Below, in pieces: positions 9,580 to 40,453 of a stretch of 64,000 nucleotides of DNA. The notes beneath the pieces were generated by a model. The model was not told the DNA's origin. It saw only the letters and a list, made by a program, of their open reading frames with translations, and made no database searches. How positions within the stretch are numbered: the first letter of the stretch is position 1; every line of letters starts with the position of its first letter. Origin of the DNA: an uncultured delta proteobacterium (GTDB lineage: Bacteria > Desulfobacterota > Desulfobacteria > Desulfobacterales > JAFDCJ01). Location of the stretch: contig CAVYNY010000009.1 in NCBI GenBank assembly GCA_963769935.1, positions 256,001-320,000 on the forward strand. The letters are read 5' to 3'. Position numbers and translations under genes: made by a program.

Positions 9580-10974
9580 CTAAGAGGCTACACCAGGCTC
9601 AATCACCCGCATGGTTTTCCATTTGCCCTGATAGAATCGCCAGAAGGTTAAAGCGGCCAGCTGGCAAAGAAAAAAAACGGTGCAGCCCCAGGCATAGTAC
9701 AACCCCATCCCGAAAATCTCAATGCCGATATAAATCGGCAGCATCATGCCGAAGAAGGAGATCAATCCCATGCTCCACATGATAAATCGGGTATCGCCGG
9801 CGCCTTTCAGCACCGCCGTGCTGATCATATATAACCCATCCAGCAGCAAATAAGCCGCCACAAATCGCAGAACCACGATTCCCATGCTCTTGATGGCGGC
9901 AAAGTCTGCCGGGCTGATGTCCCGGGGTCGGAATAGATCCAGCAGGGGTTGCGGCATGAACACATACAGCAAAATGAATACGGAAATATACGATGCCACG
10001 ATGACCATGGTGGCCCGGGCGGCTGCAACCGCCTCCTGCGGGCGGTTGCGGCCTAGAGCCTGCCCCACCAGGGTGCTGGCGCCGAGGGCAAAGCCGATTA
10101 GAGGCCGAAAAGACACGGAATCCAGGGCAATGCCGATATTGGTAACCGCCAGCTCGGCTTTGCCGATGCGTCCCACCATGAGAATGAAAAACATGAAGGC
10201 CAACACATCCAGACTGAACTGAAGCGAGCTGGGCACGCCGTACCGCAGCAGGCGCCGGAAAAGATCGGCATCAAAATGACGGTTTTTGAAAATCTTGAAA
10301 ATCTGATCGTTTTCCCGGGTGAACACGAAAAAGCCGAGCAGCAGCGTGGCGCTGGCCCAGGAAAACACCGTCGCGATGGCGGCCCCCAGCATGCCCAGTT
10401 CGGGGAATATCCAGATCCCGTTGATCAAGGCATAGTCCAGAGGAACATTCAGAAACATGGCGATGATATAAATGATCATCACCGGTCGGGTGACGCCGCG
10501 GCCGGTAAAAAAACTGGCAAAGCTCATCCCGATGATATGGATGCCCGAGCCCAGGCAAAGAACCCTGAAATAGGTCACCTCCAGCTGCTGCACTTCAGCC
10601 GCATGCCCGACCAGGCGAAACAACGGACCGGCCCGCAAAAGAAAGTACCCACCATGATCAGCCAGGCTGCAAAAGCAAAATAGATGGCCTGCCACAAAGC
10701 GCTGCCCACACGCTGCAAGAGCGCCGGCGCCGGTGTACTGGGCGACAAAGACATTGCAGTATCCGGCCGTGTCGGCAAAAAAAGAAAGAAACACAAAGGC
10801 GATAATACCCGCCGGCAGTGCGGCGGCAATGGCATCGATGGAGTAATTGGCCAGAAACACCCGATCGGTAAACGTCATCACCACGGTGGTGGTCATGCTG
10901 ATCACCAGCGGCATGCTGACCCGCAGCACGTCGCGGTAGCTGTTGGCTGGGCTTGCGGCAGCCGATTTGGGCAT
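9580..10974 (-). CDS. MATE family efflux transporter (locally garbled by compensating indels at about 10630-10720)
   Basis: FTDRVFL, LKGAGDTRF, STLVGQALG; the family-like stretch QRVGSALWQAIYF lies in another frame. Confidence 0.88.
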   Translation of the reverse strand: MPKSAAASPANSYRDVLRVSMPLVISMTTTVVMTFTDRVFLANYSIDAIAAALPAGIIAFVFLSFFADTAGYCNVFVAQYTGAGALAACGQRFVAGHLFCFCSLADHGGYFLLRAGPLFRLVGHAAEVQQLEVTYFRVLCLGSGIHIIGMSFASFFTGRGVTRPVMIIYIIAMFLNVPLDYALINGIWIFPELGMLGAAIATVFSWASATLLLGFFVFTRENDQIFKIFKNRHFDADLFRRLLRYGVPSSLQFSLDVLAFMFFILMVGRIGKAELAVTNIGIALDSVSFRPLIGFALGASTLVGQALGRNRPQEAVAAARATMVIVASYISVFILLYVFMPQPLLDLFRPRDISPADFAAIKSMGIVVLRFVAAYLLLDGLYMISTAVLKGAGDTRFIMWSMGLISFFGMMLPIYIGIEIFGMGLYYAWGCTVFFLCQLAALTFWRFYQGKWKTMRVIEPGVAS

Positions 10975-11167
10975 AATTCTACCTTGACGTTGCATAAAGC
11001 AGCATAGTTATTTAAGAGTGGGGGGAAAGTCGCAATCCCGCGCGGTGTCCCTTTAAGTCTGCACTTTTAGCATACGGCATACTATTGTAAAGAAATTAAT
11101 ACTGGGAAAAGAATACTGGAAGATGTGAATGCGAATACGTGACGGTCTCAACTGCTGAGCGTACCAT

Positions 11168-11204
11168 AAAAAAACCCCGTCCATATAATATTCAGACGGG
11201 GTTT
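11168..11204 (-). terminator. Rho-independent terminator of the hdr-met operon
   Basis: AAACCCCGTC...GACGGGGTTT stem with T-run on the minus strand, downstream of metF. Confidence 0.7.
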
Positions 11205-11324
11205 GATTTATACAGGGCCACTTATAATAAATTTAATATCGTGAAAATTCGGGTTAATTCGTGGCTTTTATCAAACAGCTAAATTGTTACCAAATAACTA
11301 ATAACAATTATCCAAGCCGCCGGC

Positions 11325-12251
11325 TCATTCCACCTTGGGTCGCGGCAGTACCTGGGCGAGCTCGGCAATTTCCGGTACCCGGTGCTCCCACTCGATGGCC
11401 ATCAGATGTACACCGGCGATGCCCTTCATTTCTTTGAACTCTTCGATCTGCTCACAGGCGATTTTGATGCCTTCGTCGGCAGCCTTGCCTTTGCCGGCGG
11501 CCTGCAGCCTTTTAATGATGGCTTCGGGTACGTCCATGCCGGGAACCTTGGATTGCATGTATCTGGCCATGCCGACGCTTTTCATCGGTGTCACACCGGC
11601 CAGGATATAAATTTTTTCGGTCAGTCCCATGTCGTTGGCTTGCTTGACCCATTCCCGGAATTTTTCCATGTTGTAGATGCACTGGGTCTGGATAAAATCC
11701 GTTCCGGCCTCGACTTTTTTTGCCAGGCGATGCACGCGCCAGCGAAAGGGCTCGGCAAAAGGATTGGCGGCCGCCCCGATAAAAATTTTAGGGGGTTCGA
11801 CAATGTCTTCGCCGCTCAAAAACTTGCCCTCATCCCGCATGCGCTTGACCATCTGGATCAACTGCATGGAATCAAGGTCAAAGACGCTTTTGGCGGTCGG
11901 ATGATCCCCAAACTGCTGGTGGTCGCCTGAAAGACACAGCATGTTGCGGATACCATGGGCATAGGCCCCCAGGATATCACTTTGCATGGCCAAACGGTTG
12001 CGATCCCGGCACACCATCTGGTAGTTGGGCTCCAGGCCTTCCTGCACCAGGATAAGTGAAGCCGCCCAGCTTGACATGCGCACGACGGAAGTCTGGTTAT
12101 CTGTGATGTTGACCGAATCCACGTTTCCCTTTAAATAGGAAGCCTTTTTCCGAACCTCGTCCGCGCTGGTTCCGCGCGGCGGTCCTAATTCACCGGTAAA
12201 TGCAAAATGTCCCGCATTTAAGACCTTTTCCAGATTACTGCCTGATTTCAT
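11325..12251 (-). CDS. metF: Methylenetetrahydrofolate reductase
   Basis: GELGPPRG, NITDNQ, RDRNRLAMQSD, LSGDH, FIQTQ. Confidence 0.93.
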   Translation of the reverse strand: MKSGSNLEKVLNAGHFAFTGELGPPRGTSADEVRKKASYLKGNVDSVNITDNQTSVVRMSSWAASLILVQEGLEPNYQMVCRDRNRLAMQSDILGAYAHGIRNMLCLSGDHQQFGDHPTAKSVFDLDSMQLIQMVKRMRDEGKFLSGEDIVEPPKIFIGAAANPFAEPFRWRVHRLAKKVEAGTDFIQTQCIYNMEKFREWVKQANDMGLTEKIYILAGVTPMKSVGMARYMQSKVPGMDVPEAIIKRLQAAGKGKAADEGIKIACEQIEEFKEMKGIAGVHLMAIEWEHRVPEIAELAQVLPRPKVE

Positions 12252-12279
12252 CTCGGTTTCCTTTGCCCTCGTTGATATC

Positions 12280-12961
12280 TTATTTTGCGGCCGCCTTTTC
12301 CGGTTTCTTATAGCCGGGTTGAATCAAGGTGCGCGGCACCTGATTTTGCCAATCAACCGCCGGAGTAATTTTTAAAATACAGTCCAGCCGGCCCTGCCTT
12401 TCCAGACGCTCATAGATCATATACCAGGCGCAAGGCTGATCCGGGTTGATTTCACAGCTGCCCTGGTTGGTTCCGCCGCACGGTCCGTTGTAGAGGCCCT
12501 TGGCGCACATGGTGACCGGACAGATCCCGGCGGTCTGCCCCAACACGCAACTGCTGCAGGAGCGGCACCTTTCTTCATACCACCCCACTGCCTGGTTGAC
12601 CGCCAGACCGCAGGTGTCGACGGCGGGATAAACCGGAACATCCGGGAATCTCTCCGCCAGAAACTGAATACCGACGCCGCAGGCCATCGAGATGACGGCT
12701 TCATAGTCTTTGACCAGATCATCCAGCTCGGCCAGATATTCGCGGTCGCACTGTCTTTCAACCGTTTTGGCGCCGACCTCGATGGGGTTGTCTTTCAGCC
12801 TGCGGGCCATATCCAATTCGGCATTCAAGACATCGACTTCTTTCTCGCCGCCTGCCAGGCAGACGGCGACACAGGTTCCGCATCCGACGGTCAGAACCTT
12901 CTTGTAGGGCGTTAAGCAGACCCATTATCTCTTCAAAAGGTTTTCTTTTGGCAACTATCAT
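12280..12961 (-). CDS. metV: MetV (MTHFR small Fe-S/Zn subunit); +1 frameshift near 12914
   Basis: MIVAKRKPFEEI, then in the shifted frame VGCGTCVAVC, ERQCDRE, ACGVG, CPVTMCAKGLYNGPCGG, CAW. Confidence 0.85.
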
Positions 12962-13040
12962 AGTATCCTCCTGTTGTACCGAACGCTTTGCGTCCGGTCG
13001 AGCACTGCGCATCGTCGCACGACCAAGCCCGGGCGAGTTA

Positions 13041-14360
13041 CTACATGGCCATTTCGGGATGAAAGACCAAGACGTCTTTAAGATCGTCTCCCAGATAGGT
13101 CCTTTCGTTCGGTCCCAGTATTCCCATTGAGAGGCAGAGGAGGGTCCAGATGTGGACCACTGAATAACCTCCGCCGAAATGCTCGCTGAGCTCATGAATC
13201 TGAGCGTGGCAGTTATGGCAGCCGGCAACGCAGTAGCCCGCGCCGGTTTTCTGGATCTGCTCATCCTTGAGCCGGCCGAATTGCAGACGCTGCTCTTTGA
13301 AACCGGCCTGGAGGAATCCGCCGCCGCCGCCGCAACAATAATTGTTGGACCTGTTGGGCTCCATATCGATAAAATTTTCTTCGCCTACAATGGATTTGAT
13401 CACAAATCGCAAATCCTCGGCAATCGGGTCCCCATAGGTCTTGCGCACGATCTGACAAGGGTCCTGAACCGTAAATTTGACCTTCAAATCCTTGTTCCAG
13501 TCGGAATTGACCTTCAGCTTGCCCTCGCGAATCCATTTGGCATAGTATTCATAGATGTTCTTGACGACAAAGTTATGCTCGATGTTGAATTTTTTCAGTC
13601 CTGCCAGGACTGAGAAGGTGACGTGCCCTCACTCGGTGTTGAGATAGACCTTGCAGCCGAGATCATCGGCCTGTTTGGCCGTGGTGCGGGTGATGTGCTC
13701 CCAGGCCTCATTGTCGGAAAGAAACATGCAGTAGTTCTCGCCGCCCCATCCTTTGCTGCCGTATGTCCAGTCGACCCCGGCCGCATGCAGGATCTTCCAG
13801 AGCGGAACCATTTCATCGGGTTCGGTGACCGGCTCCCTGGAATTCTGGTTCAAAAAGAATTCAGCGCCCTGCTTATCGATGGGAGCCTCCATGTCTTTAA
13901 ACTCGGGCTGGGCCTCGCGGTATTCCTCCAGAACGTCTTCCACCACGAATTGAAAATCCTCCGGGCTCGCTCCCATGGCGCTGCAGCTGTCATTTTTCAG
14001 CGCCATGTCGCAGGAGCCCAGGATGCCCTTGGGACGCTCCTCCCGGGGGCGCATGCCGCGGACATTGTAAACCAGCTGCGGTATATCAATTTTCATGGGA
14101 CAAACATAAATGCAGCGCTGGCACATGGTGCACATCCAGGGCCAGTCCGACTTCAGAATTTCCTCGTCCATCCCGAGCGCCGCCATGCGCAGGAATTTGC
14201 GGGGGTCCAGCCCTTCCAGACCCGTCGCCGGGCAGCCGGAAGAACAAGCCCCGCAGGTGAGGCACAAGTTCAGATTGCCGCCGTCGGGCAGCACCTTTTT
14301 GACCGCATCCAATAATGTGCTTTTTTTCTTGGCTCCCAGCACTAGGATATCCTCTTTCAT
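13041..14360 (-). CDS. HdrD/DsrK-like 2x[4Fe-4S]+CCG-domain oxidoreductase, selenoprotein (U244), 439 aa
   Basis: TGA 13629-13631 reads NTE-U-GH at the ECGH motif; frame continues to QDPCQ/CCGGGGG/GCHNC; SECIS-like hairpin follows. Confidence 0.88.
13595..13613 (-). promoter_or_regulatory. SECIS-like hairpin (CCG protein)
   Basis: TCAGTCCT-GGC-AGGACTGA, perfect 8-bp stem at +16..+34 from UGA. Confidence 0.8.
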
Positions 14361-14806
14361 AATTCTTTTCCTCTTTTATCCGTTTTGGGTATTTTTCTAT
14401 GGTTTAAAGGGTTCGGTCCCAGGGACCGGATCAGATCCGCCATCTCTTTGGCATAGGCTGCAAAAGTAGGGCCTTCCCCGGATGATAGATTGTACATCCG
14501 GACCCGCTCGCCTTCCAGACCGATTTCTTCGAGCAGCATCTTTACGTGCGCCACCCGCTCCCTGGCTCTAAAATTGCCTTCATTATAATGACAGGTGCCT
14601 TCCAGACACCCGACCACATACACACCGTCGGCACCCTGCTGGATGGCCCGCAGCAAGTGCCTCACATCCACTTTCCCGGTACACGGGATTCTGATAATTT
14701 TTACGTTCGAAGGGTATTGAAGTCGCATGGAACCTGCCAGGTCCGCGGCTGAATACCCTCAATAATCACAGCAAAAAGCTATGATGTTGGGTTCAAATTC
14801 GGTCAT
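14357..14806 (-). CDS. mvhD: MvhD/FlpD [2Fe-2S] subunit, selenoprotein (U16), 149 aa
   Basis: MTEFEPNIIAFCCDY-U-GYSAADLAG (TGA 14759-14761), PCTGKV, GCLEGTCHY; GGAGG RBS. Confidence 0.92.
14729..14744 (-). promoter_or_regulatory. SECIS-like hairpin (mvhD-2)
   Basis: GGACCT-GGC-AGGTTCC; shares the CCTGGCAGG apex with 13595-13613. Confidence 0.7.
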
Positions 14807-14808
14807 CA

Positions 14809-17800
14809 CTATCCTCCTGCCAGCAAGGCATCAATTTTACACATAATCTGCTCATCTTCGTAAAAACTCAGGCTGATCGCCTCCCGCGGGCAAACGCTGG
14901 CACATATGCCGCAGCCATGGCAAATGGCATCGTCGATTTCAACAACGCCTTCATCGGAATTGAAGGCCGGCACCTGAAAAGGACACGACCTGACACAGGT
15001 CAGACATTTCACGCAGTGTTCCGCATCGACCTTGGCGGTAATGGCCGAAAGCTTGATTTCCGGTTTGGCCAGGAAGGTTGCGGCCCGCGAGGCCGCGGCC
15101 TGGGCCTGGGCGATGGATTCTGAAATCAGCTTGGGGCCGTGGGCGGTGCCGCACAAAAATATACCATCTCCCGGCATGTCAACCGGACGCAGTTTGACAT
15201 GGGCTTCAATGAAAAATCCCTCCGGGTTGCGGTTCAGCTTCATGATGCGGCTCAATTCTTCCGTGTCTTCGGCCACCACGCCGGCGCTCAACGCCAGCAG
15301 ATCGGCCCGGATCGCCAGATTGCGCTGCAGGATGTGATCCTTGACGGACACCGTCAAGCCTTCCGAATCCTCCATGACCTGCGGCGCAGCTTCCGGGGTA
15401 AATCGAATAAAAATAACCCCTAGCTGCCTGGCCTCCTTGTAGTAATCCTCCAGCAGTCCGTAGGTTCGCATATCGCGGTACAGAATATAAATCTGGGCCT
15501 CCGGATTGAGTTTTTTAATCGCCAGGGCGTTTTTGACGGCCGACTGGCAGCAGATGCGCGAACAATTCTCATTTTTTTCGTTGCGCGATCCCACGCACTG
15601 AATCATCACGACGCTGGCCAGATCCCCAGCGCCCTTTTCCGCAAGCCGATCGCTCAATTCCAGCTGGGTGACCACCCGTTCGCTTTCCGCATAAAGATAT
15701 TCCTGGGGCCGGTACTCCCGGGCGCCGGTAGCCACGATAATCACCCCGTGATTGATGCTGATTTCCTTAGCGTCGGCCCCCACGGCCAGATGGGTTGAAA
15801 AATTCCCCTTGTAGCCGCCGAAGGCGGTAATCCCGGCCTCGGTTAAGACTTCAATCTTGGCGTGCGCCTGCACCCCGGCGATGAGTTCCTGCAGATAGGC
15901 ACGGATATCAGCGCCTTCGATGGTGTGATGCAGACGGGCGGCCAGGCCGCCGAGCTGCTTTTCCTTTTCCACCAGCACGACGTCAAAACCCTGATTACCC
16001 AGACCCAGGGCGGCGTTCATCCCCGCGATGCCGCCGCCGATCACCAGCGCCCGCTGTTGCACGGGAATGACCTTCTCCCGGAGCGGCTTCAATGCCGCCG
16101 CGCGGGCCACCGACATCCGCACCAGATCCTTGGCCTTGGTGGTCGCCTCCGGCTTGGTCTGGGAATGAACCCAGGAATCCTGATTGCGGATATTGGCCAT
16201 TTCAAAAAGGTATTTGTTCAACCCGCAGGCTTCCAGGGTTTCCATGAACATCGGTTCATGGGTCTTGGGACTGCAGGAGGCCACGACCACCCGATTCAGC
16301 TGATGCTCCAGGATTTTTTCCTTTATTTTATCCTGGGTATCCTGGCTGCAGGTAAAAAGATTCTCATCCGCATAGACCACATGGGGCAGCCCCTCGGCAT
16401 AAGCCCTGACGGACGGCACATCGACCACCCCGCCGATGTTGATGCCGCAGTTGCAGACAAATACACCGATGCGCGGCGCTTGTTCGGAAACGTCAACTTC
16501 TTCCGGAACCTCAACCTTTTCGGTTTCCGTGCCCCGGGCTGCGGCCAGATGGCCGCCGGCCGCACAGGCGGCGGCACTGGCTTCGGTCACGGCGCCCGGA
16601 ATATCTTTGGGCCCCTGAAATAACCCGCAGGTATAAATGCCGGGACGCGATGTGGACACCGGTGCAAACGGGCGGGTGGCAACAAAATTGTATTTGTTCA
16701 GTTCGATGCCCAGGCGCCGGGCCAGTTCGACCGAACTTTGGGCAATGCCCAACCCTACCGAAAGCACCACCATGCTGAAAGTTTCTTCCGCCTGGCTGCC
16801 GTCCTCATCCACGTACTTGACCAGCAGGTCGCCGGTTTCAGGAATTTCGGAAATGGTATGAATGCGGGATTTGGAGAACCGCACGCCCTCTTTGTCTTTG
16901 GCCCTCAGGTAGTACTTCTCGTAGTCCTTGCCGAAGGTCCGGATATCCATGTTAAAAATAACACAGTCCAGCTCGCCGTGGGCGTGTTCCTTGGCAATCA
17001 TGGCTTCTTTGATCGCATACATGCAGCAGACCGAGGAGCAGTAACCGTTGCCGCAGCGATTGGTATCCCGCGACCCGACACATTGCAGCCAGGCGATTTT
17101 TTTGGGCGCTTCCCGGTCCAGCGGCCGCATCAAATGACCGAAATACGGTCCCGAAGCGCTTAGAATTCTCTCGAATTCCTCGCTGGTGACCACGTTGGCG
17201 TATTTGCCGTAGCCGAGAAAATCAAGGCCGGAAGGATCATAGCCCTCGCTGCCGGCGGATAGAACGACCGAGCCGACCCTGAGGCTGGTTTCGCGTTGGG
17301 TGTCATCGTAGGATACGGCCTTGGCCAGACACATATTTTCACACAGACCGCAGCCGATGCAAATCTCCGGATCAATGGCAAATGCCAGCGGAACGGCCTG
17401 GGGATATTCGATATAGGTCGCCCGCCGGTCATCCAGTCCCTTGTTATAGGAATTGACGGCCGTCACCGGACAGTGCCGCGCGCAATCGCCGCATCCGGTG
17501 CATTTGGCCACATCGATATAGCGGGGATGATTGGTCAGAGTGACCGTGAAATCGCCGGGCTCACCCTCGACGGCGGTTACCTCGCTGTTGGTAATGATTT
17601 CGATATTCAAGTGCCGGCCGACCTCGACCAGTTTGGGCGAGATCACTCACATGGCACAGTCGTTGGTGGGAAACGTCTTGTCCAGCCGCGCCATCATGCC
17701 GCCGATCGTAGGCGACTTTTCGACCAGATACACCTTGTATTCCGAGTTGGCCAGGTCCAGAGCCGCCTGCATGCCGGCGATCCCGGCCCCCACCACCATG

Positions 17801-17835
17801 ACCGAACCGCTTGTTATTCCTTTTTCCGATCCCAT
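14809..17835 (-). CDS. hdrA: Large HdrA-like flavo-Fe-S protein with two FAD domains, selenoprotein (U63), 1008 aa
   Basis: [17 protein letters not shown] (TGA 17647-17649) joins two track ORFs in frame; two GxGxxG motifs, QCVGSR twice, ferredoxin motifs. Confidence 0.93.
17614..17631 (-). promoter_or_regulatory. SECIS-like hairpin (hdrA-2)
   Basis: CTGGTCGA-GG-TCGGCCGG at +16; identical in the other hdrA. Confidence 0.8.
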
Positions 17836-17844
17836 GAACACTCC

Positions 17845-18594
17845 TTATAATACCGAAAAAACAGGTTTGCTGTCTTCCATTGCCTCGAAGGCAACCCTGT
17901 TTGTCTTTTCCAGATCCGCGAGCAGATAAGACACCCGTTTGAGCGCCAGCCCCGTGCTCCGGCTGATTTCCCTGACGGATCGGTTTCCCGTTTTAACCGC
18001 TGCGTATATGAGATTCTTGTGATACTCCCTCTCCAGAACCGAATCCATTATGGTTTCATAAGAGTCCGTATCCCATTTGCGCCCGTAAACATCACCCCGG
18101 GCGGTTATTTTCAGTTCTTTGCTCACCAGCCAGCGCAGATTCTCGGCACTGACGGTCATGAGGGCTGCTTCCAACTGCAGGGCGAAGGCCTGGACATCCA
18201 GAGCGCCCTGCTCCCTGACGGATTCGGTGACCTCGGTGGCGATCTGAGCAAAACGCTGGGCCTCGGCCGATGAAACCCACGCCAGATGAAGCCGGTCCCG
18301 CCCGATTCCAGTCAGATCCAGCAGGTTGCGGGTTAATCGGATCTTTTTGTCGGCGTATACATTACCCTCCAGGTAATGGCAGTCACCGATGTGTCAGCCG
18401 GCCACCAGCACGCCGTCGGCGCCCTCCCGCAATGCATTGACAATGAAGACGGGGTCAACCCGTCCCGAGCACATGACCCGGATGGTTCTCAGGTTGCTGG
18501 GATACTGCAACCGGGAAACACCGGCCAGATCCGCACCGGCGTATGCACACCAGTTGCACAGAAACGCAACAATTTTAGGTTCAAAATCGGACAT
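17845..18594 (-). CDS. mvhD: MvhD with C-terminal HTH-like extension, selenoprotein (U67), 249 aa
   Basis: [26 protein letters not shown] (TGA 18394-18396); frame stays open to 17845. Confidence 0.92.
18360..18378 (-). promoter_or_regulatory. SECIS-like hairpin (mvhD-1)
   Basis: CATTACCT-GGA-GGGTAATG at +16..+34. Confidence 0.8.
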
Positions 18595-18670
18595 ACTTTT
18601 ATCCTTTGGTACCTTCAGAGCTATTTAATGCAAAAAAATATTATTGGGCTATTTTCCTTATTTTCAAGTG

Positions 18671-18841
18671 ATTGAAAATTGTCGATTGAATATTGAATAT
18701 TTAAGGTACGCCTTTGGCGGATCCATTTTTATTAAAACGACTTGTCAAAGAATGGTGGAACGACCCCCGGCGCTTGAACCACATGTAGATACGCAAGCGA
18801 CTTCCACAAATATTCAATTTTCAATCTTCAATATTCAATTT
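18671..18841. repeat. Palindromic element with tandem ATTGAAT-type heptamer arms
   Basis: Left ATTGAAAATTGTCGATTGAATATTGAATATTT; right AAATATTCAATTTTCAATCTTCAATATTCAAT. Confidence 0.85.
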
Positions 18842-18842
18842 C

Positions 18843-21800
18843 CTATCCCGCCTTTACCGAACACACCGCCGCCATGATCTGCTGATCCCGGAAATGCAGC
18901 ATATCGATGGCCTTTTTGGGGCAGCTGGACGCACACAGGCCGCAGCCTTTGCAGGAAGCCGATATGTTCCGGGCGCGGTAGCCTTTGCCCTCAACCTCTT
19001 CCAGTTCGATGGCCCCGAACGGGCACACTTCGACGCACAAACCGCAGCCGATGCATTGGTCGGCATCGACTTTTGAAACCAGGGGCGAAACCGAAATGGC
19101 GGATTTGGCCAGAACCGTCGCGGCGCGGCCGGCAGCGGCCATGGCCTGGGAAATCGATTCATCAATGGGTTTGGGATAATGTGCCAAACCACAGACAAAC
19201 AGTCCGTCGGAGGCAAAATCCACCGGCCTCAGCTTGGCATGTGCCTCCATAAAGAAATTATCCGCATTGACCGGCAGCTTGTAAAAAGCCGCCAGCCGGC
19301 TGTTTTCCGTCGGAACAATGGCCGTTGCCAGGTTGATCACATCGGCTTTAATCAGCACCTTCCGTTGCAAAATCGGATCGAAAACCCGCACTTCGAGTCC
19401 GCCGTCCGTCTCGGACACAGTCGGTTTGTTGTCCAGGTTGTAGCGGATAAAAATAACGCCTTTGGCCCGGGCTTCTTTGTAAAGGGCCTCCCGTTCCCCG
19501 AACGTGCGGATGTCGCGATGCAAAATATATACGTTCGCATCGGGGTGCCGGTCCTTGACGGCAATGGCCTGGGAAACGGATGTCGTACAGCATATTCTGG
19601 AACAGTAGGGCCGTTGCTCGTCGCGGGAGCCCACACACTGGATGAACACAACATTGGAAGCGTCATTCAGCAGTTCAGGATGATGGTCGAGTTCATGCCA
19701 GCGCAGCACCCTTGGATTTTGGCCGTATAGATATTCAGCCGTAGCGGAAGCCTCCGCCCCCGTGGCAATCACCACTGCTCCGTGCCGGACGACGCGGGTC
19801 AAATTGCCGGATGCCACCTGGGTTTCAAAATTACCCACGAATCCCTTGGCATTGGCCACCTCGGCATTGAGGAATACTTCAACATCCGGGTGATTTTGCA
19901 CGTCGGCGATCAAATCGTCCAAAAACGTCCGAACGTCCCGACCGCGCCAGGTGGCGGTAATATCCCGTGCGGCGCCGCCCAGTTCGGCTGAACGTTCGAT
20001 AAGAACCGCCGGAAAGCCCTGGTCGGCAAGACTGAGAGCGGCGGTCATTCCGGCGACACCGCCGCCGATGACCAGCGCCGTCTTGTTGACGTCCACCGAA
20101 ATATCCGGAATCGGCTCCAGCAGCGCCGCGCGGGCCGCCGCCATCCGCACGAGATCTTTGGCTTTGGCGGTGGCGGCGTCATGATCGCCGGAATGCACCC
20201 AGGTGCACTGGTTGCGGATATTGGCCATGTCGAACAAATAGGCATTTACGCCGGCATTGCGGATGGTCTCCTGGAACAGCGGTTCGTGGGTTCGGGGGGT
20301 GCAGGCGGCCACCACAATCCGATTTAATTTTTGTTTACGAATAATTTCCACCATTTTCTCCTGCGTATCCTGACTGCAGGAAAAAAGGTTTTCTTCCGCG
20401 TGAACCACATAAGGCAGGCCGGCGGCATATTCCGTAATCGCCGGAACATCGGCGATCCCGCCGATATTGATCCCGCAGTTGCAGACAAAGACCCCGATCC
20501 GCGGCGGCTCACCGCTGACGTCCTTTTCGGCGGGAAACTGCTTTTCCTTGACAAGGGTTCCGCGCGCCGACGACAGCGCCAGGCCGGCACTGCAGGCGGC
20601 GGCACTGGCCTCCATCACGGACTGGGGAATGTCCTTGCAGCCCTGGATCACACCGGCAACGTAAATCCCGGGCCGTGAGGTGGCCACCGGGCGCACATCG
20701 TCGGTTTTCACGAAATTATAGTGATTGAGCTCAATTCCCAGGTTTTGGGCCACCTCGACCGCCGAATCGGCGGGCTCCATGCCCACGGACAGCACGACCA
20801 TGTCAAAATCTTCCGTTATTCTCCGGCCGTCATCGGTGACGTACTCCAGGCTCAGGGTACCGCTCTCATCAGCCTGGGTGATGGTGTGGACCTTGGAACA
20901 AATAAAGCGGACGCCGCCGGCCTTAGCCCGGTCGTAATAGCGCTCGAAATCCTTGCCGTGGGTCCGCATATCCATATAAAATATGCTTCCCTGAAATCCG
21001 GCCGCCAGATGCTCCCCGGCGATGACCGCCTCCTTGATCGCATACATACAGCAAACTGAAGAACAGTACTCATTGTCGCATTTGTTCTGATCGCGGGAGC
21101 CGACACACTGCAGCCAGGCGATTTTAGCGGGCGGCCTGCCGTCGGAAGGCCGTAGCACGTGGCCGCCCGTCGGCCCGCCGGCCGAGAGAATTCTTTCAAA
21201 TTCCATACTGGTCACGACGTTGGCAAGTCGGGCGTACTGATAATTGTCGAAGGCGGAAGGATCGAAGGTTTTAAAACCGGCGGTAACGATGACGGACCCG
21301 ACATTGAGGGAAATTTCCTCCTCTTTGTCATCAAAATTAACGGCACCGGTCGGGCAGATTTTTTGGCACGCGCCGCATTTGCCTTTTTTAAGAAAAATAC
21401 ACCGGTCCGGATCGATCACATATTTAAGGGGCACGGCCTGGGCATAGGGGACATAAATAGCCTTGCGCTTGCTGATCCCCTTGTTGAATTCATCGGCGGT
21501 CTTGGCCGGACATTTTTCAGCACAGGCGCCGCAGGCAATGCACTTGTCCAAATCTACGTAGCGGGGCGACCTCTTTATCTTAGCGGTGAAATTGCCCTCT
21601 TCCCCCTGGATGGCGGTAAGTTTTGAAAGCGTGAGAAGTTCGATGTTCAGATGCCGGCCGACCTCGACCAGTTTGGGCGAAATAATTCACATTGAACAGT
21701 CGTTGGTCGGAAAGGTCTTGTCCAGTTGCGCCATGGCACCGCCGATGGCCGCCGATTCCTCGACCAGGTATACGTAGTAGCCGGAATCAGCCAGGTCCAG

Positions 21801-21875
21801 GGCTGCCTGCATCCCGCTGATGCCGCCGCCGAGAACCAGCACCGATCCGATTGTGACCGCATTGTCCTTTTTCAT
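18843..21875 (-). CDS. hdrA: Large HdrA-like flavo-Fe-S protein, selenoprotein (U63), 1010 aa
   Basis: [17 protein letters not shown] (TGA 21687-21689); in frame with the 902-aa track ORF. Confidence 0.93.
21654..21671 (-). promoter_or_regulatory. SECIS-like hairpin (hdrA-1)
   Basis: CTGGTCGAGGTCGGCCGG at +16. Confidence 0.8.
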
Positions 21876-21982: not shown

Positions 21983-22265
21983 GGAAAACCGTGTCTTATT
22001 AAACGAATGTAATCCAAATAATATCCAAAAATTAATAATATGCAGCCGATTCGGCTTGTTAAACCATACCAATTTAGTCATAAAAAAACAATTGATATTA
22101 ATAATCCAAACGTATATAAATTTTACGTGATTTGAATTAAAATTTTCATTTCAATTCCAAAGAAGAAGCGCTTTGATCGGCAAAGCACCATCATCGTTCC
22201 AACGGTGCTGCTGCTCAAGTCCCTGGGGAGGGCGCGTTGCATCGCCCGCCAAAGGATGTGCATCA

Positions 22266-23198
22266 ATGAGTGTAAAGACACCGAGCAAACTTGAAAAGAT
22301 TCTGAGTGAAGGCCATTTGGCCGTGACTTCCGAATGCGGACCTCCCCGGGGCAGCGATCCGGAGACAATCATCAAAAAAGCCGAGCTGATTAAAAACCAT
22401 GTGGACGCCATCAATATTACCGACAATCAAACGTCGGTCACTCGCCTGTGCAGCCTGGCCGCCTGTATCCGTTTGAAACTGCTGGGGCTCGAACCGGTTT
22501 TGCAGATGGTGACCCGCGACCGCAATCGCATCGCACTGCAAAGCGACATCCTGGGAGCCGCCTCGTTTGATATTCACAATATCCTGTGTCTGTCCGGCGA
22601 CCACCAGAGTTTCGGTGATTGCGCTCAGGGCCGGAATGTTCACGATATAGACTCCATGCAGCTGATTCAGACGGTGCGACATATGCGCGATGAGGGCAAA
22701 TTTCTCGGCGGCGACGAGATCAAACGGCCGCCGCAAATGTTTGTGGGGGCGGCCGCCAATCCGTTTGCCGATCCATTTGAAATCCGCGTTCCCCGGCTGG
22801 CCAAAAAAATCGCCGCCGGCGCGGAATTCATCCAGACCCAGTGTATTTACAACCTGGACAAATTTGAAGAATGGATGCGGCAGGTCCGCGACCGGGGTCT
22901 GCACGAAAAAGTTTACATTATGGCCGGACTGACTCCCATAAAGAATGTCGGCATGGCCAGGTACATGAAAAAGCGCGTACCCGGCATGGATGTGCCCGAT
23001 GAAATCGTGGACCGGCTGGCCGGCACGCCCAAAGAAAAGCAGGCTGAAGAGGGAATCAAAATTTGCATCGAATCCATTCAGCGCCTCAAAGAGGTGGAAG
23101 GTGTGTCCGGCTTTCATATCATGGCCATCGAATGGGAAGAAAAAGTGCCCGAAATAGTAGAAGCCGCCGGTCTCTATCCCCGGCTTAAGCTTGATTGA
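22266..23198 (+). CDS. metF: Methylenetetrahydrofolate reductase, second paralog
   Basis: SECGPPRG, NITDNQ, RDRNRIALQSD; highly similar to 11325-12251. Confidence 0.93.
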   Translation: MSVKTPSKLEKILSEGHLAVTSECGPPRGSDPETIIKKAELIKNHVDAINITDNQTSVTRLCSLAACIRLKLLGLEPVLQMVTRDRNRIALQSDILGAASFDIHNILCLSGDHQSFGDCAQGRNVHDIDSMQLIQTVRHMRDEGKFLGGDEIKRPPQMFVGAAANPFADPFEIRVPRLAKKIAAGAEFIQTQCIYNLDKFEEWMRQVRDRGLHEKVYIMAGLTPIKNVGMARYMKKRVPGMDVPDEIVDRLAGTPKEKQAEEGIKICIESIQRLKEVEGVSGFHIMAIEWEEKVPEIVEAAGLYPRLKLD

Positions 23199-35406: not shown

Positions 35407-35553
35407 GAATGACGAACGTCGGATGTCGAATTAAAGGATACTATCTATTTTAAAAATGTATGAACCAAGATAAGTGGCGAAGCGACACGCCGCGCTGCGC
35501 GAGCGACTTCCTTTATTCGTCATTCTTCATTCGTCAATTGTCCTTCGTCATTC
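35407..35553. repeat. Palindromic element with GAATGAC-type heptamer arms
   Basis: GAATGACGAACGTCGGATGTCGAAT ... ATTCGTCATTCTTCATTCGTCAATTGTCCTTCGTCATTC. Confidence 0.8.
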
Positions 35554-37632
35554 TAATGTTTCGCCGACGGCTTCCTCTTCAGCCTGCTGCGGCGGCGCTG
35601 GATGGGCATAGCATATTAATCCGCATTGCAAGCATCTTGAAGCTTCGGCTCGGGCCATTTCGCTGCTGAAGCCCCTCTCGATTTCACCGCAGGCTGCAAG
35701 CTGCCGTCCGCTGCAAATCGGCATGATCCGGCGCTGACTGGCCGCAACCGCTTCGACGTGGTCGACATCCTGCAATACGGAATGCGGTGTGATGACATGT
35801 TCGGTCAGGGACGGTCCAATTCCGTACATGATCTGCTGCACCGAGGCGGCTGCTCTTCTTCCGGCCCCGATGGCCTTGATGGCGGCACTGTAATCGGCCA
35901 GAACCTCTCCATCTGAAAACAGACCGACTTCGTCCTTGAATGCCGGCGGCTTATAGGGCGGGACGGCCTCCCATTTCAGCGGTTGATCGGAAGGCCGGTC
36001 GGTTTCACCTTCCGTTGATTTTTGCTCGACAAAGATCAGCTCCGGAAAACGCCCCGTCGCCATGATCAGGGTTTGGGCTGCAAGGGTGCCGGTTGCCCGC
36101 GATTTGGTTTCAACATACTCCAGTTGCGCCAGGCGATCTCCAATCCCGCGCAGACGATGAATCGCGGCATTATAAATGACATGCAGCCCTTCTTCAAGGC
36201 CCGCGTCTTTAACATCGGCATCGGTGATCGGGCTATTTTCCAGATCCTCGCGGAACATGAGGGTAACCTCTTGCGCACCTGCCGCCCTGCAAATGCCGGC
36301 CGCCTTCAGCGCCAGCTTGCCGCCGCCGAAAATAACCACATTCGACTGGCCGGCAAATATATCGGTACCGGCCGCCAATTTTAAAAGATCGACCATCAGA
36401 TAGGTACCGGGCACCGGCGATTCAATTTCGCTCGCCGCTCCACGCGCCATTCTGCCGTCCCAGCCGCCGGCTGCCAGAAAAACTGCTTCAAAATCCTGTT
36501 GGAGCAGCTTGTCGACGGTAAAATCCTTTCCCATGACCCGGCCGGTCTCCGCTTTGACTCCCATTTCAAGGATGCCTTCGATATCCCAGTCCAGAATCTC
36601 CCGGGGAAGCCTTTCAGCCGCAATGGCACTGCGCAATAGCCCGCCAAGTTGCGGACCCGCTTCATATACGGTAACTGCATGGCCCAGGCGGGCCGCAAAA
36701 AAGGCCGTGGACAGGCCCTCCACCCCGCCCCCGACCACCGCGATGCGGCGGCCCGAGGCCGGGGCTGCGTACGGCTGAATGCGTTCACCGCTTTCTCTTT
36801 CATAGTCGGCGGCATAGCGCTTGAGATAATTAATCGCCACGGGCTCATCGATGAAATTGCGCCGGCATTCCAGTTCGCAGGGACGGGGACAAATCCTGCC
36901 GATAATCGCCGGAAAAGGATTGCGCTCTTTAATGACCTGAACCGCACGATGATAATTCCCGAGAGAAATTTGCCGGATGTATTCGCGAATGTTGATGCCG
37001 GCCGGACAGCCCCGCTGACAGGGCGTGGTGCATTCCTCGGTCGTATACTCGCGCATGATGCGGCGGGTTACGGAAGACAGATTAATGATGTGTTTGGGGC
37101 AAACCCTTTCACAGGTACCGCAGCCGGTACATTTATCTTCAATCACCACCGGCAGTCCTTCGGGCCCCATGACAATCGCTTTAAAAGGGCAGGCTTTGGC
37201 GCAGGTTCCCAGCCCCAGGCAGCCGATGGTGCAAACTTTCATGCCGCCGCCCAGCAGGGCGACGGCCCGGCAATCATCCAGGCCGTCATAGACATATTTC
37301 GTATCGGCAGCCTGAACCCCGAAATAGCAGCCGGGTCGGGCAATATCCGGCTCTTTGGCCTCGATTTTAACTCCCATAATTTCGGCGATGGCTCCGACCA
37401 CTTCGGCACCGGCCGCGACACACGAATTGGGCGCTGAAATTCCGGACACGATCGCTTCGGCATTGGCGCTGCAACCCGGCAGCCCGCAGCCGCCTCAATT
37501 CGCGCCCGGCAGCGCGCCTTCGACGGCCTCTACCTTGGGATCAACATATACGTAAAAAAGTTTCGATGCCAGAGCGAGAACGGCACTGATGATCAGTCCC
37601 ATGCCTCCCATCAAAATAAGCGCTGTGGTCAT
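35548..37632 (-). CDS. rnfB: RnfB::GltD/NfnB-like fusion, membrane-anchored, probable selenoprotein (U46), 694 aa
   Basis: N-terminal TM, FYVYVDPKV, LPGAN-U-GGCGLPGC (TGA 37495-37497), ferredoxin motifs, PCQRGCP...GRICPRPCELECRR, degenerate Rossmann motifs. Confidence 0.85.
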
Positions 37633-38112: not shown

Positions 38113-39900
38113 TCAGAAAATCGCATCAAACTTGCACTTCTCAAAACAGGTCATGCATTGGATGCATTTTTCTTTATCGATCCAGGCAACCTCTTTCTTT
38201 TTCCAGACAATGGCATCGGCCGGGCAGCTCCGGAAACAAAGCCCGCATTTGGTGCACATGTCCGGATTGACTTCAAATTTCAAGAGCGCCGTGCAGCGCT
38301 TGGCCGGACATCGTTTTTCATAGATATGGGCCTCATATTCGTGCCGGAAGTAGCGCAGGGTGGAAAGCACCGGGTTGGGTCCGGTCTGGCCCAGGCCGCA
38401 CAAGGCGGTTTCCTTGATGGCGGCCGAGAGCTCCTCCATGGTTGTCAGATCATCCGGTTCCCCCCGGCCTTCGCAGATTTTTTCCAGCAGCTGCAAAAGC
38501 CGTCGGGTGCCCTCACGGCAGGGAGTACACTTGCCGCAGGACTCATCCTGCACAAAGTCCATGAAAAATCGGGCCATGTCCACCATGCAGGTGTTCTCAT
38601 CCATAACAATGGCCCCGCCGGAGCCCATGATGGCCCCCACTTTGGCAATGGCTTCGTAATCAACCGGTGTATCCAGGTGCTGCTCCGGAACGCAGCCCCC
38701 GGAAGGACCACCGAGCTGGACCGCCTTGAATTTTTTCTTGCCGGGAATACCGCCCCCGATATCATAGACAATGGTTCTGAGGCTTGTTCCCATCGGCACT
38801 TCTACCAGACCGATATTATTAATATCGCCGGACAGAGCGAAGACCTTGGTTCCTTTGCTGCTTTCGGTGCCGACGCTGGCATACCACGCCCCTCCTTTTA
38901 AAATAATCTGGCCGATATTGGCCAGGGTCTCCACATTGTTTAAGACGGTCGGCTTCTCCCACAGTCCCTGATGGGCCGGAAACGGCGGACGGGGCCGCGG
39001 CATCCCGCGCTTGCCCTCGATTGACCGCATCAAAGCCGTTTCTTCGCCGCAAACAAAGGCACCGGCTCCCTGATAGATATTAATATCAAAATCGAAGCCG
39101 GTTCCCAGAATATCTTTGCCCAGCAGTCCGTAGTCCCTGGCCTGTTTGATGGCGATTCCCAGCCGGCGGATAGCCAGGGGATATTCCGTCCGGGCATATA
39201 TGACGCCCTGATGGGCATCAATAGCTCTGGCGGCAATAATCATCCCTTCCAGAACCGCATGCGGATCGGCTTCAAGGACGCTGCGATCCATAAAGGCACC
39301 GGGATCACCTTCATCCGCATTGCACAGCACATATTTGATATCTCCCGGACTCCGGCGGGCAAACTCCCACTTTAATCCGGTTGGGAAGCCGGCACCGCCG
39401 CGCCCTCTGAGCCCCGAAGTTTTTACCTCTTCGATGATCTGCTCGGGAGTCAACTCCTGCAACGCTTTGGCGGCTCCGAAGTAGCCGTCCCTGGCAATGT
39501 ATTCCTCAATCACCTCCGGATCGATGAGTCCTTTGTTCCGCATTACCCTGAACATCTGGTTGGCAAAAAAAGGAATTTGCGCCATATTCGGGATGGTTTC
39601 TTTGGAAGTGGGCTCCTTGTAAAACAACTCTTTAACCGGGCGGCCTTTTAGGAAATGCTCTTCTACCAGATGGGGAACATCTTCCGCTTTCAGCTTCTGA
39701 TAAAAAATGCCTTCGGGCTGAACCAGCATGACCGGCCCGACGGCACAAAAGCCGTTGCAGCCGGTTTCAATGATCTTGATCTCCTCGGCCAGCCCTTGCC
39801 GCTCGAGCTCCTGTTGAAGTGTTTCCGCAAATTTTTTTGTCCCACTGGCATGACAACCCGTACCGCCGCAGAGCATCAAATGGGTTCTAACCTTATTCAT
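38113..39900 (-). CDS. NuoF/HydB-type NADH-binding FMN subunit
   Basis: N-terminal [2Fe-2S] Cys, GRGGAGFPTG, ADEGDPGAFMD, GGPSGG, SCGKCTPCREG, two C-terminal [4Fe-4S] motifs. Confidence 0.93.
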   Translation of the reverse strand: MNKVRTHLMLCGGTGCHASGTKKFAETLQQELERQGLAEEIKIIETGCNGFCAVGPVMLVQPEGIFYQKLKAEDVPHLVEEHFLKGRPVKELFYKEPTSKETIPNMAQIPFFANQMFRVMRNKGLIDPEVIEEYIARDGYFGAAKALQELTPEQIIEEVKTSGLRGRGGAGFPTGLKWEFARRSPGDIKYVLCNADEGDPGAFMDRSVLEADPHAVLEGMIIAARAIDAHQGVIYARTEYPLAIRRLGIAIKQARDYGLLGKDILGTGFDFDINIYQGAGAFVCGEETALMRSIEGKRGMPRPRPPFPAHQGLWEKPTVLNNVETLANIGQIILKGGAWYASVGTESSKGTKVFALSGDINNIGLVEVPMGTSLRTIVYDIGGGIPGKKKFKAVQLGGPSGGCVPEQHLDTPVDYEAIAKVGAIMGSGGAIVMDENTCMVDMARFFMDFVQDESCGKCTPCREGTRRLLQLLEKICEGRGEPDDLTTMEELSAAIKETALCGLGQTGPNPVLSTLRYFRHEYEAHIYEKRCPAKRCTALLKFEVNPDMCTKCGLCFRSCPADAIVWKKKEVAWIDKEKCIQCMTCFEKCKFDAIF

Positions 39901-39958
39901 TCTTTTCTCCTGCAATTCAATTACCAGGAACCATCACGTCCTCTGAGACCGTTTACTT

Positions 39959-40453
39959 CTATTTGTACTTTTCAAGGGTCTCTACAACCTTGTCGGCCTT
40001 AACACCGCCATAGGTGTCCTGATCCACCACCATCACAGGCGCAAGGCCGCAAGCTCCCAGACACCTGACCGCTTCCAGCGAAAACCGCCGATCCTCGGAG
40101 ACGCCGCCCCCTTTCAGGTCGAACTTGTTTTCGATACGGCCGATAACCTCCTTGATGCCCTTGACGTAACACGCCGTTCCCATGCACACCTTAATTATAT
40201 GGCGGCCTTTGGGCTCAAATGAGAAAAGGGCGTAAAACGAGGCGACACCGTAAACTTCGCTGCTGGAAAGATTGAGTCCGTAGCTGATATAATCAATCAG
40301 CTCGACAGGCAGATATCCAACGACATCCTGACATTCCCGCAAAACGCCGATGACCGATCCGGGGATATCCCGGTTAGCGGCGATAATCTCATCGATTTTA
40401 GTCCACATATCATTTTGGATATCAGGATGCTGGGGATGAATGTCATAAGTCAT
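39959..40453 (-). CDS. NuoE/HydC-type [2Fe-2S] subunit
   Basis: CMGTACYVKG, CLGACGLAP. Confidence 0.93.
   Translation of the reverse strand: MTYDIHPQHPDIQNDMWTKIDEIIAANRDIPGSVIGVLRECQDVVGYLPVELIDYISYGLNLSSSEVYGVASFYALFSFEPKGRHIIKVCMGTACYVKGIKEVIGRIENKFDLKGGGVSEDRRFSLEAVRCLGACGLAPVMVVDQDTYGGVKADKVVETLEKYK

Follow-up and report, generated by a model that had tools for sequence, protein, structure and literature searches.

Acetate-oxidising sulfate reducers must pay for the uphill oxidation of methyl-tetrahydrofolate (methyl-THF). A gene cluster in a 64,000-nucleotide stretch of DNA from an uncultured delta proteobacterium of the Desulfobacterales (positions 256,001 to 320,000 of contig CAVYNY010000009.1, assembly GCA_963769935.1; hereafter the window) offers a concrete candidate for the way they do so. 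Within positions 11325–21875 of its minus strand lie, in the order of transcription, hdrA1, mvhD1, hdrA2, mvhD2, a gene for a CCG protein, metV and metF. All seven co-oriented genes named in a preliminary description of the window are present. The operon is real, conserved and found in RNA libraries of close relatives. With a probability of about 0.45, we read the seven genes as an electron-bifurcating, methyl-THF oxidising system of the oxidative Wood-Ljungdahl pathway, in which MetVF would deliver electrons at MvhD2, the CCG protein would be the high-potential sulfur terminal and NAD+ (nicotinamide adenine dinucleotide) the final acceptor at low potential. Genes, codons, motifs, synteny, pathway genes and occurrence in RNA libraries were observed; selenocysteine (Sec, U) insertion, complex formation, wiring, direction and acceptors are inferred. 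The features of the cluster are as follows.

18843..21875, minus strand: hdrA1, 1010 amino acids (aa), fused double HdrA, BamE-like
18595..18842, no strand given: 248-bp spacer between hdrA1 and mvhD1, inverted-repeat element
17845..18594, minus strand: mvhD1, 249 aa, predicted Sec67
14809..17835, minus strand: hdrA2, 1008 aa, fused double HdrA
14357..14806, minus strand: mvhD2, 149 aa, predicted Sec16 in CxxU
13041..14360, minus strand: CCG protein gene, 439 aa, HdrD/TmcB/HmcF/DsrK-like
12280..12961, minus strand: metV, frameshifted in the assembly by an additional base at about 12910
11325..12251, minus strand: metF, 308 aa, methylene-THF reductase
11168..11204, minus strand: terminator-like hairpin with a T-run, visible in the sequence

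Probable selenocysteine codons

Five consecutive genes had been described as carrying one in-frame TGA each at a conserved cysteine. This was confirmed: all five frames go on past the TGA into Pfam-matching sequence, and reading TGA as U makes whole, and thereby mends, five genes that automatic annotation had split. A hairpin resembling a selenocysteine insertion sequence (SECIS) begins 17–18 nucleotides (nt) past the TGA at every site. Codons and hairpins, all on the minus strand, are given below.

hdrA1: TGA 21687-21689 (U63, in CxxU), SECIS-like hairpin 21654..21671
mvhD1: TGA 18394-18396 (U67), SECIS-like hairpin 18360..18378
hdrA2: TGA 17647-17649 (U63), SECIS-like hairpin 17614..17631
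mvhD2: TGA 14759-14761 (U16, in CxxU), SECIS-like hairpin 14730..14744
CCG protein gene: TGA 13629-13631 (U244, in E-U-G-H), SECIS-like hairpin 13595..13613

The chance that five internal stops should all be TGA and all fall on cysteine columns was roughly estimated at 2e-10. The sites were then compared among relatives, using loci anchored on the CCG gene (the best 80 of at least 546 matches, two of which, L005 and L095, are the same contig). All 80 CCG orthologues carry TGA at the CCG site, and cysteine occupies position 244 in 120 of 120 full-length protein homologues. The expected alternation of cysteine and TGA was seen at the other sites, with 34 TGA and 18 Cys at the hdrA site, 22 TGA, 29 Cys and 2 Ser at mvhD site 16, and 15 TGA and 38 Cys at mvhD site 67. 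Across dozens of genomes TGA stands at these conserved columns, TAA or TAG never. The hairpin is stronger in TGA carriers than in Cys carriers at the hdrA site (−10.2 vs −7.0 kcal/mol) and at mvhD site 67 (−10.3 vs −6.8 kcal/mol), and there is no difference at mvhD site 16 (−11.0 vs −10.8 kcal/mol, p = 0.98); the sequences compared are related and not independent, so that p values overstate. The mvhD2 hairpin is identical in sequence in 21 of 22 TGA carriers. Of the 80 loci, 58 have G-C and 20 have T-A at one stem pair of the CCG hairpin, a swap which may be one inherited event. The genome holds the Sec machinery whose presence had been made a check of the proposal, namely tRNA-Sec (selC), selB, two selD and selA, the last (G000:C22:678143-679400) with two frameshifts in the assembly.

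The five TGA codons thus almost certainly encode selenocysteine. That they are true stops in a decayed or split cluster is hardly credible: the frameshifts of selA and metV in the assembly and the equal hairpin energies at mvhD site 16 would fit such decay, but not the retention of TGA at cysteine columns, the stronger hairpins of TGA carriers at the other two sites or the previously catalogued Sec versions of HdrA, MvhD and HdrD/GlpC-type proteins (PMC2702500, PMC9312934).

A sixth likely selenoprotein is encoded elsewhere in the window (35548-37632, minus strand). It joins an RnfB-like N-terminus to a GltD-like FAD/NAD(P) domain (695 aa; FAD, flavin adenine dinucleotide), with TGA 37495-37497 in a Cys motif, and its gene lies downstream of NuoE/NuoF-like genes at 38113-40453.

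Extent and transcription of the operon

The stop of mvhD2 overlaps the start of the CCG gene, so that the two reading frames overlap, while the 248-bp spacer behind hdrA1 (18595-18842) is an AT-rich inverted-repeat element, similar to repetitive extragenic palindromes or miniature inverted-repeat transposable elements (REP/MITE-like), found at about 207 locations in the genome. Of the one promoter and one terminator claimed at first, the terminator-like hairpin stands; the automated scan overlooked it, its loop exceeding the limit of 8 nt. The single promoter gains no support: a scan for sigma-70-like promoters returned 12 sites where 9.0 ± 3.2 were expected, which is not above chance, and the repeat-bearing spacer separates hdrA1 from mvhD1. 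In RNA contigs from one study the operon was covered in four of four runs and the stretch 9708-11296 was left uncovered in all four; a DNA run gives cover from 10900, that is, inside this stretch. The RNA contigs span the CCG-metV-metF, mvhD2-CCG and mvhD1-hdrA2 junctions.

In the assembly metV is frameshifted by the extra base near 12910. This base is most likely an assembly error, because it is absent in all five runs that cover the site (X1 and X2 from DNA; X3, X4 and X6 from RNA), which come from strains about 99% identical, and because two relatives read through metV without frameshift. On the same runs metV was rejected as a pseudogene.

A second metF lies divergently (22266..23198, plus strand) and is 60% identical to that of the operon. 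Ahead of it stands a 94-bp piece of a metF-like gene that is only distantly related (window 22165-23198, plus strand). A relative of the same genus has a whole metF-like-hdrL-mvhD-metV-metF operon at this position; hence about 7 kb appears to have been deleted in this lineage, leaving the divergent metF as an operon remnant.

The host is a sulfate reducer with a complete Wood-Ljungdahl pathway, since both gene sets were found (dsrA, dsrC and dsrK; acsB, acsC, cooS, fhs and folD); the Wood-Ljungdahl pathway had been supposed in the preliminary description. Many more HdrA/MvhD loci are present in the genome, as are three metF and three metV. One further cluster (L085:8308-16548, on C20) comprises a molybdopterin/NuoG-like gene, NuoE, a NuoF-GltD fusion, metV and metF, and resembles the putative NuoEFG-type methylene-THF reductase arrangement described for Desulfobacterales (PMC8515935). 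In another (L091:8501-18488, on C16), NuoE/NuoF-like genes, a large HdrA fusion, mvhD, Flx-like genes and dsrC are clustered.

Subunit anatomy and known relatives

HdrA2 is 54% identical to HdrA1, and both have the make-up of BamE, with two TrxR/FAD domains and the full bifurcation signature in the N-terminal one only. The signature was defined as E356/K409 (PMC9430772) and mapped through 5ODC_A. It reads E227/K281 in the N-terminal and D730/S768 in the C-terminal FAD domain of HdrA1, and E222/K276 and S728/K768, respectively, in HdrA2. Among 73 large HdrA/HdrL proteins it is complete in the N-terminal FAD domain of all 73 and in the C-terminal one of at most 4. This leaves the operon with two candidate bifurcating flavins in place of four, in line with the BamE structure (bioRxiv 10.64898/2026.04.10.717634), and weakens the double-FAD reading first given for the two HdrA/MvhD pairs, since only one flavin of each HdrA carries the signature.

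MvhD1 has a C-terminal tail of about 110 aa, similar in length to that of BamF, and its U67 is presumably a [2Fe-2S] ligand; U16 of MvhD2 is at the position matching BamF Sec19. In HdrA, U63 aligns to Cys197 of 5ODC_A, which is Sec197 in the HdrA of the methanogen M. maripaludis (PMC13518236). An NAD(P)-binding GltD insert is absent from both window HdrAs and present in HdrL relatives, where it sits between the two clusters of an inserted ferredoxin domain (2 of 2 examined).

The CCG protein contains two cubane motifs, a degenerate first CCG domain with E-U-G-H and a complete second one ending in CHNC, a motif shared with a TmcB-like paralogue in the genome. DsrK, TmcB and HmcF likewise have two cubane motifs, one complete CCG site and E-C/U-G-H, and in DsrK C329 and H331 are strictly conserved, the non-ligating C329 being proposed as a sulfur relay (bioRxiv 10.64898/2026.08.25.746951). 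U244-G-H246 aligns to the ECGH cysteine of DsrK from the same genome. The DsrK/HdrD-like character assigned at first is retained in this sense, with Sec244 at the DsrK-like catalytic position and one protein replacing HdrB and HdrC. The protein scores below the NCBIfam cut-offs of DsrK, TmcB and HmcF (170/735, 170/750 and, for DsrK, 122/400 bits), a sequence search of the PDB returned HdrC and HdrB structures and no DsrK, HdrD or BamD, and the window cluster has no DsrM-type membrane partner, in contrast to DsrK. A second CCG copy (C41:1734-2582) is 81% identical and frameshifted in the assembly, which looks indel-prone.

With the MetVF-HdrCBA-MvhD systems of Moorella thermoacetica and Sporomusa ovata, the cluster shares metV-metF beside mvhD and a large HdrA that contains a pair of TrxR/FAD domains; in S. 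ovata, too, E356/K409 is found in one domain (PMC9430772). It differs in having two HdrA-MvhD pairs, five Sec codons and a sulfate-reducing host. Moorella and Sporomusa have a separate HdrC and an HdrB with two non-cubane sites, whereas the window has one TmcB/DsrK-like CCG protein in which only one CCG site is complete, and Moorella-type HdrA carries the NADH-binding GltD insert that the window HdrAs lack. In BamDEF, as in the window HdrAs, a fused HdrA dimer pairs a bifurcating FAD with a non-bifurcating one, and BamE has a CxxC/U relay on its low-potential exit; CxxC/U near residue 60, a long MvhD, Sec in the N-terminal motif of MvhD and a fused HdrCB-like subunit are further common traits (bioRxiv 10.64898/2026.04.10.717634). 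A candidate bamBCDEF cluster was found on C22 of the same genome (L088:5928-13762), its BamE and BamF with in-frame TGA and its BamF ending in a ferredoxin-like domain. Since this cluster lies on C22, the window cluster was rejected as a class II benzoyl-CoA reductase; no gene for the W-containing BamB or for BamC is among the annotated open reading frames of the window, and the CCG protein is only 25% identical to the BamD candidate on C22.

In Desulfobacterium autotrophicum HRM2, Sec-containing HdrA, HdrL, HdrD and MvhD occur, including a tandem hdrL/hdrA locus (PMC2702500), and Seep-SRB1g has metF-HdrABC (PMC10553843); the parts of these two texts consulted do not give the seven-gene order. 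Taken together, the sources drawn on (PMC2702500, PMC5109826, PMC6085437, PMC5947623, PMC5736913, PMC6295475, PMC13343851, PMC13518236, PMC9312934, PMC10553843, PMC8515935, PMC9430772 and the two bioRxiv studies cited above) catalogue Sec-containing Hdr/MvhD families and report Hdr genes beside metF in Desulfobacterota and marine Chloroflexi. No description or assay of the seven-gene order was found in the literature searched, which included few subscription papers or supplements, and a genomic description may exist. All five selenoprotein families, and Hdr genes linked to metF in Desulfobacterota, have thus been published before, and the operon is best read as a sulfate-reducer variant of Hdr-MvhD-MetVF.

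Layouts in relatives and candidate wiring

In the CCG-anchored set, with loci mostly in records named Desulfobacterales, Desulfobacteraceae or delta proteobacterium, all seven genes occur in order in 8 of 80. As this survey is biased, a metF-anchored one was added. A close metF exists in 73 of 81 genomes of the order; from 66 non-self matches (at least 72% identity) 60 were used, the other six being dropped because they were close to contig starts or contained a stop, and layouts were classified by hand. The two-module order of the window was seen in 10 of 60 loci (HdrA first in 6, HdrL or a partial gene first in 4), and an all-Cys two-module version with the CCG gene upstream in 2 (L140, L151). 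Seven loci have one HdrL/HdrA module plus CCG, six have CCG then met(V)F with no hdrA seen (three at contig ends), 11 have hdrA/L-mvhD-metVF without a window-type CCG, in 15 metVF comes before a gene that is hdrA-like or CCG-like but distant, and nine have no Hdr gene in the stretch. The short hdrA-like gene found behind metV-metF in 14 of the 60 (L110, L111, L116, L124, L128, L131 and others) is distant and has Cys at the Sec site. The linkage of Hdr genes to metVF is hence conserved, an hdrA-family gene lying near metF in 44 of 60 loci. The layout is modular: the seven-gene unit put forward at first recurs in relatives, but as one of several arrangements.

In the reading we prefer, MetF would oxidise methyl-THF (−200 mV) and the electrons would pass from MetV to the C-terminal ferredoxin domain of HdrA2, on to the [2Fe-2S] cluster of MvhD2 and finally to the only bifurcating FAD in HdrA2. 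From there one electron, at high potential, would reach the CCG protein, where Sec244-His246 and the one non-cubane cluster would use it to reduce sulfur bound to DsrC or a comparable persulfide. Its low-potential counterpart would exit via the CxxU relay followed by the inserted ferredoxin domain, with NAD+ as its likely final acceptor, because HdrL relatives carry the NAD(P)-binding GltD insert in this exit domain. In the present genome, where the insert is missing, the optional HdrA1-MvhD1 module or soluble ferredoxin would deliver it to an NAD-linked partner whose gene lies elsewhere. This wiring was drawn by analogy with the solved BamE/HdrA structures. Since hdrA/L-mvhD-metVF occurs without CCG, MetV need not depend on the CCG protein.

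Oxidation of methyl-THF is uphill by +23 kJ/mol with NAD+ and +48 kJ/mol with ferredoxin (PMC9430772). With potentials taken from PMC6295475 and PMC9430772, bifurcation from methyl-THF was calculated to need a second acceptor at or above −80 mV for NAD+ and at or above 0 to +50 mV for ferredoxin. DsrC-trisulfide is reduced by menaquinol (bioRxiv 10.64898/2026.08.25.746951), with menaquinone at −74 mV (published abstract), and could therefore just support NAD+, hardly ferredoxin. The coupling to ferredoxin and DsrC suggested in the preliminary description is thus thermodynamically marginal.

Several points weigh against the preferred reading. Energetics are near zero even with NAD+. One CCG gene for two bifurcating flavins is poorly explained, and the place of HdrA1-MvhD1 is the weakest step of the model. 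The CCG protein keeps Cys384 (CHNC) where DsrK has Asp (D500, CAID), and the related BamD gives electrons to the electron-transfer flavoprotein, not to a disulfide (bioRxiv 10.64898/2026.04.10.717634). No NAD-binding partner is conserved beside the cluster, NuoF-like matches occurring in 2 of 140 loci, and by this count the NuoEF-like genes at 38113-40453 were also rejected as conserved neighbours of the cluster. The complex of M. thermoacetica showed neither NADH-dependent methylene-THF reduction nor ferredoxin reduction (PMC6295475), and HdrCB is placed between HdrA and MetV in the model of PMC9430772. Among the pieces listed, the hdrA1-mvhD1 and hdrA2-mvhD2 junctions are bridged by no RNA contig, and contigs that bridge genes do not prove one transcript. 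A complex predicted from CCG, MvhD, MetV and the C-terminal domain of HdrA, all of the all-Cys locus L151, scored 0.54 against 0.47 for the control and was counted neither for nor against binding.

It is possible, if on the unlikely side, that the CCG protein instead conducts electrons, as a wire, between the HdrA flavin and MetV, as in the wiring drawn for the Moorella/Sporomusa type (PMC9430772). Methylene/methyl-THF would then be the high-potential and ferredoxin the low-potential couple, NADH would enter or leave via MvhD, and in the oxidative direction methyl-THF and reduced ferredoxin would confurcate to reduce 2 NAD+. Such energetics have been proposed (PMC6295475), and the mean of −450 and −200 mV, −325 mV, is near NADH. 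The CCG gene directly precedes metV or metF in 22 of 60 loci; this subunit type can serve so, as BamD passes electrons to a protein partner, and BamF, whose tail length MvhD1 has, docks BamI/BamGH (bioRxiv 10.64898/2026.04.10.717634). A wire would nonetheless be dispensed with in the 11 of 60 loci that link hdrA/L-mvhD-metVF without CCG, it would not require the Cys/Sec-Gly-His that stands without exception (120 of 120) at the catalytic position of DsrK, and HdrL has its NAD-binding insert in the domain by which low-potential electrons leave, and not at MvhD, where electrons enter.

Co-regulation of two or three separable units (HdrA1-MvhD1; HdrA2-MvhD2-MetVF; a free CCG reductase of DsrC type) is unlikely. 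The at least eight layouts among 60 loci speak for it, as do the spacer behind hdrA1, the many other HdrA/MvhD pairs in the genome, two loci with mvhD2-CCG-metVF and no nearby hdrA (13 kb upstream covered) and the 32 of 80 loci, some on short contigs, in which CCG has none of the other six genes beside it, a count that also weighs against our own reading. Against separability stand the recurring two-module order, with all seven genes together in the two all-Cys loci as well, the overlapping mvhD2 and CCG frames, and the HdrBCA-MvhD pulled down by MetVF of S. ovata (PMC9430772). A mainly reductive role (autotrophy or methionine supply by methylene-THF reduction), or one without bifurcation, is very unlikely: related Seep-SRB1g clusters have been assigned to carbon fixation (PMC10553843) and the pathway is reversible in Desulfobacteraceae (PMC2702500), but the bifurcation signature is present in all N-terminal FAD domains compared, and two further metF genes, one of them in the NuoEFG-like cluster, could serve anabolism. 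A seven-subunit supercomplex with five Sec residues and the two HdrA bifurcating flavins in series, which would oxidise methyl-THF, reduce DsrC-bound sulfur directly and at once form NADH or reduced ferredoxin, is quite unlikely. If it existed, the most demanding reaction in acetate oxidation would be tied to the last reaction of sulfate reduction.

The cluster is a concrete, testable candidate for methyl-THF oxidation in sulfate reducers and is widespread in the order. Its natural variants, with one or two modules, with or without CCG, with HdrL or HdrA and with Sec or Cys, offer a way to take the wiring apart, and the all-Cys versions would be easier to express.

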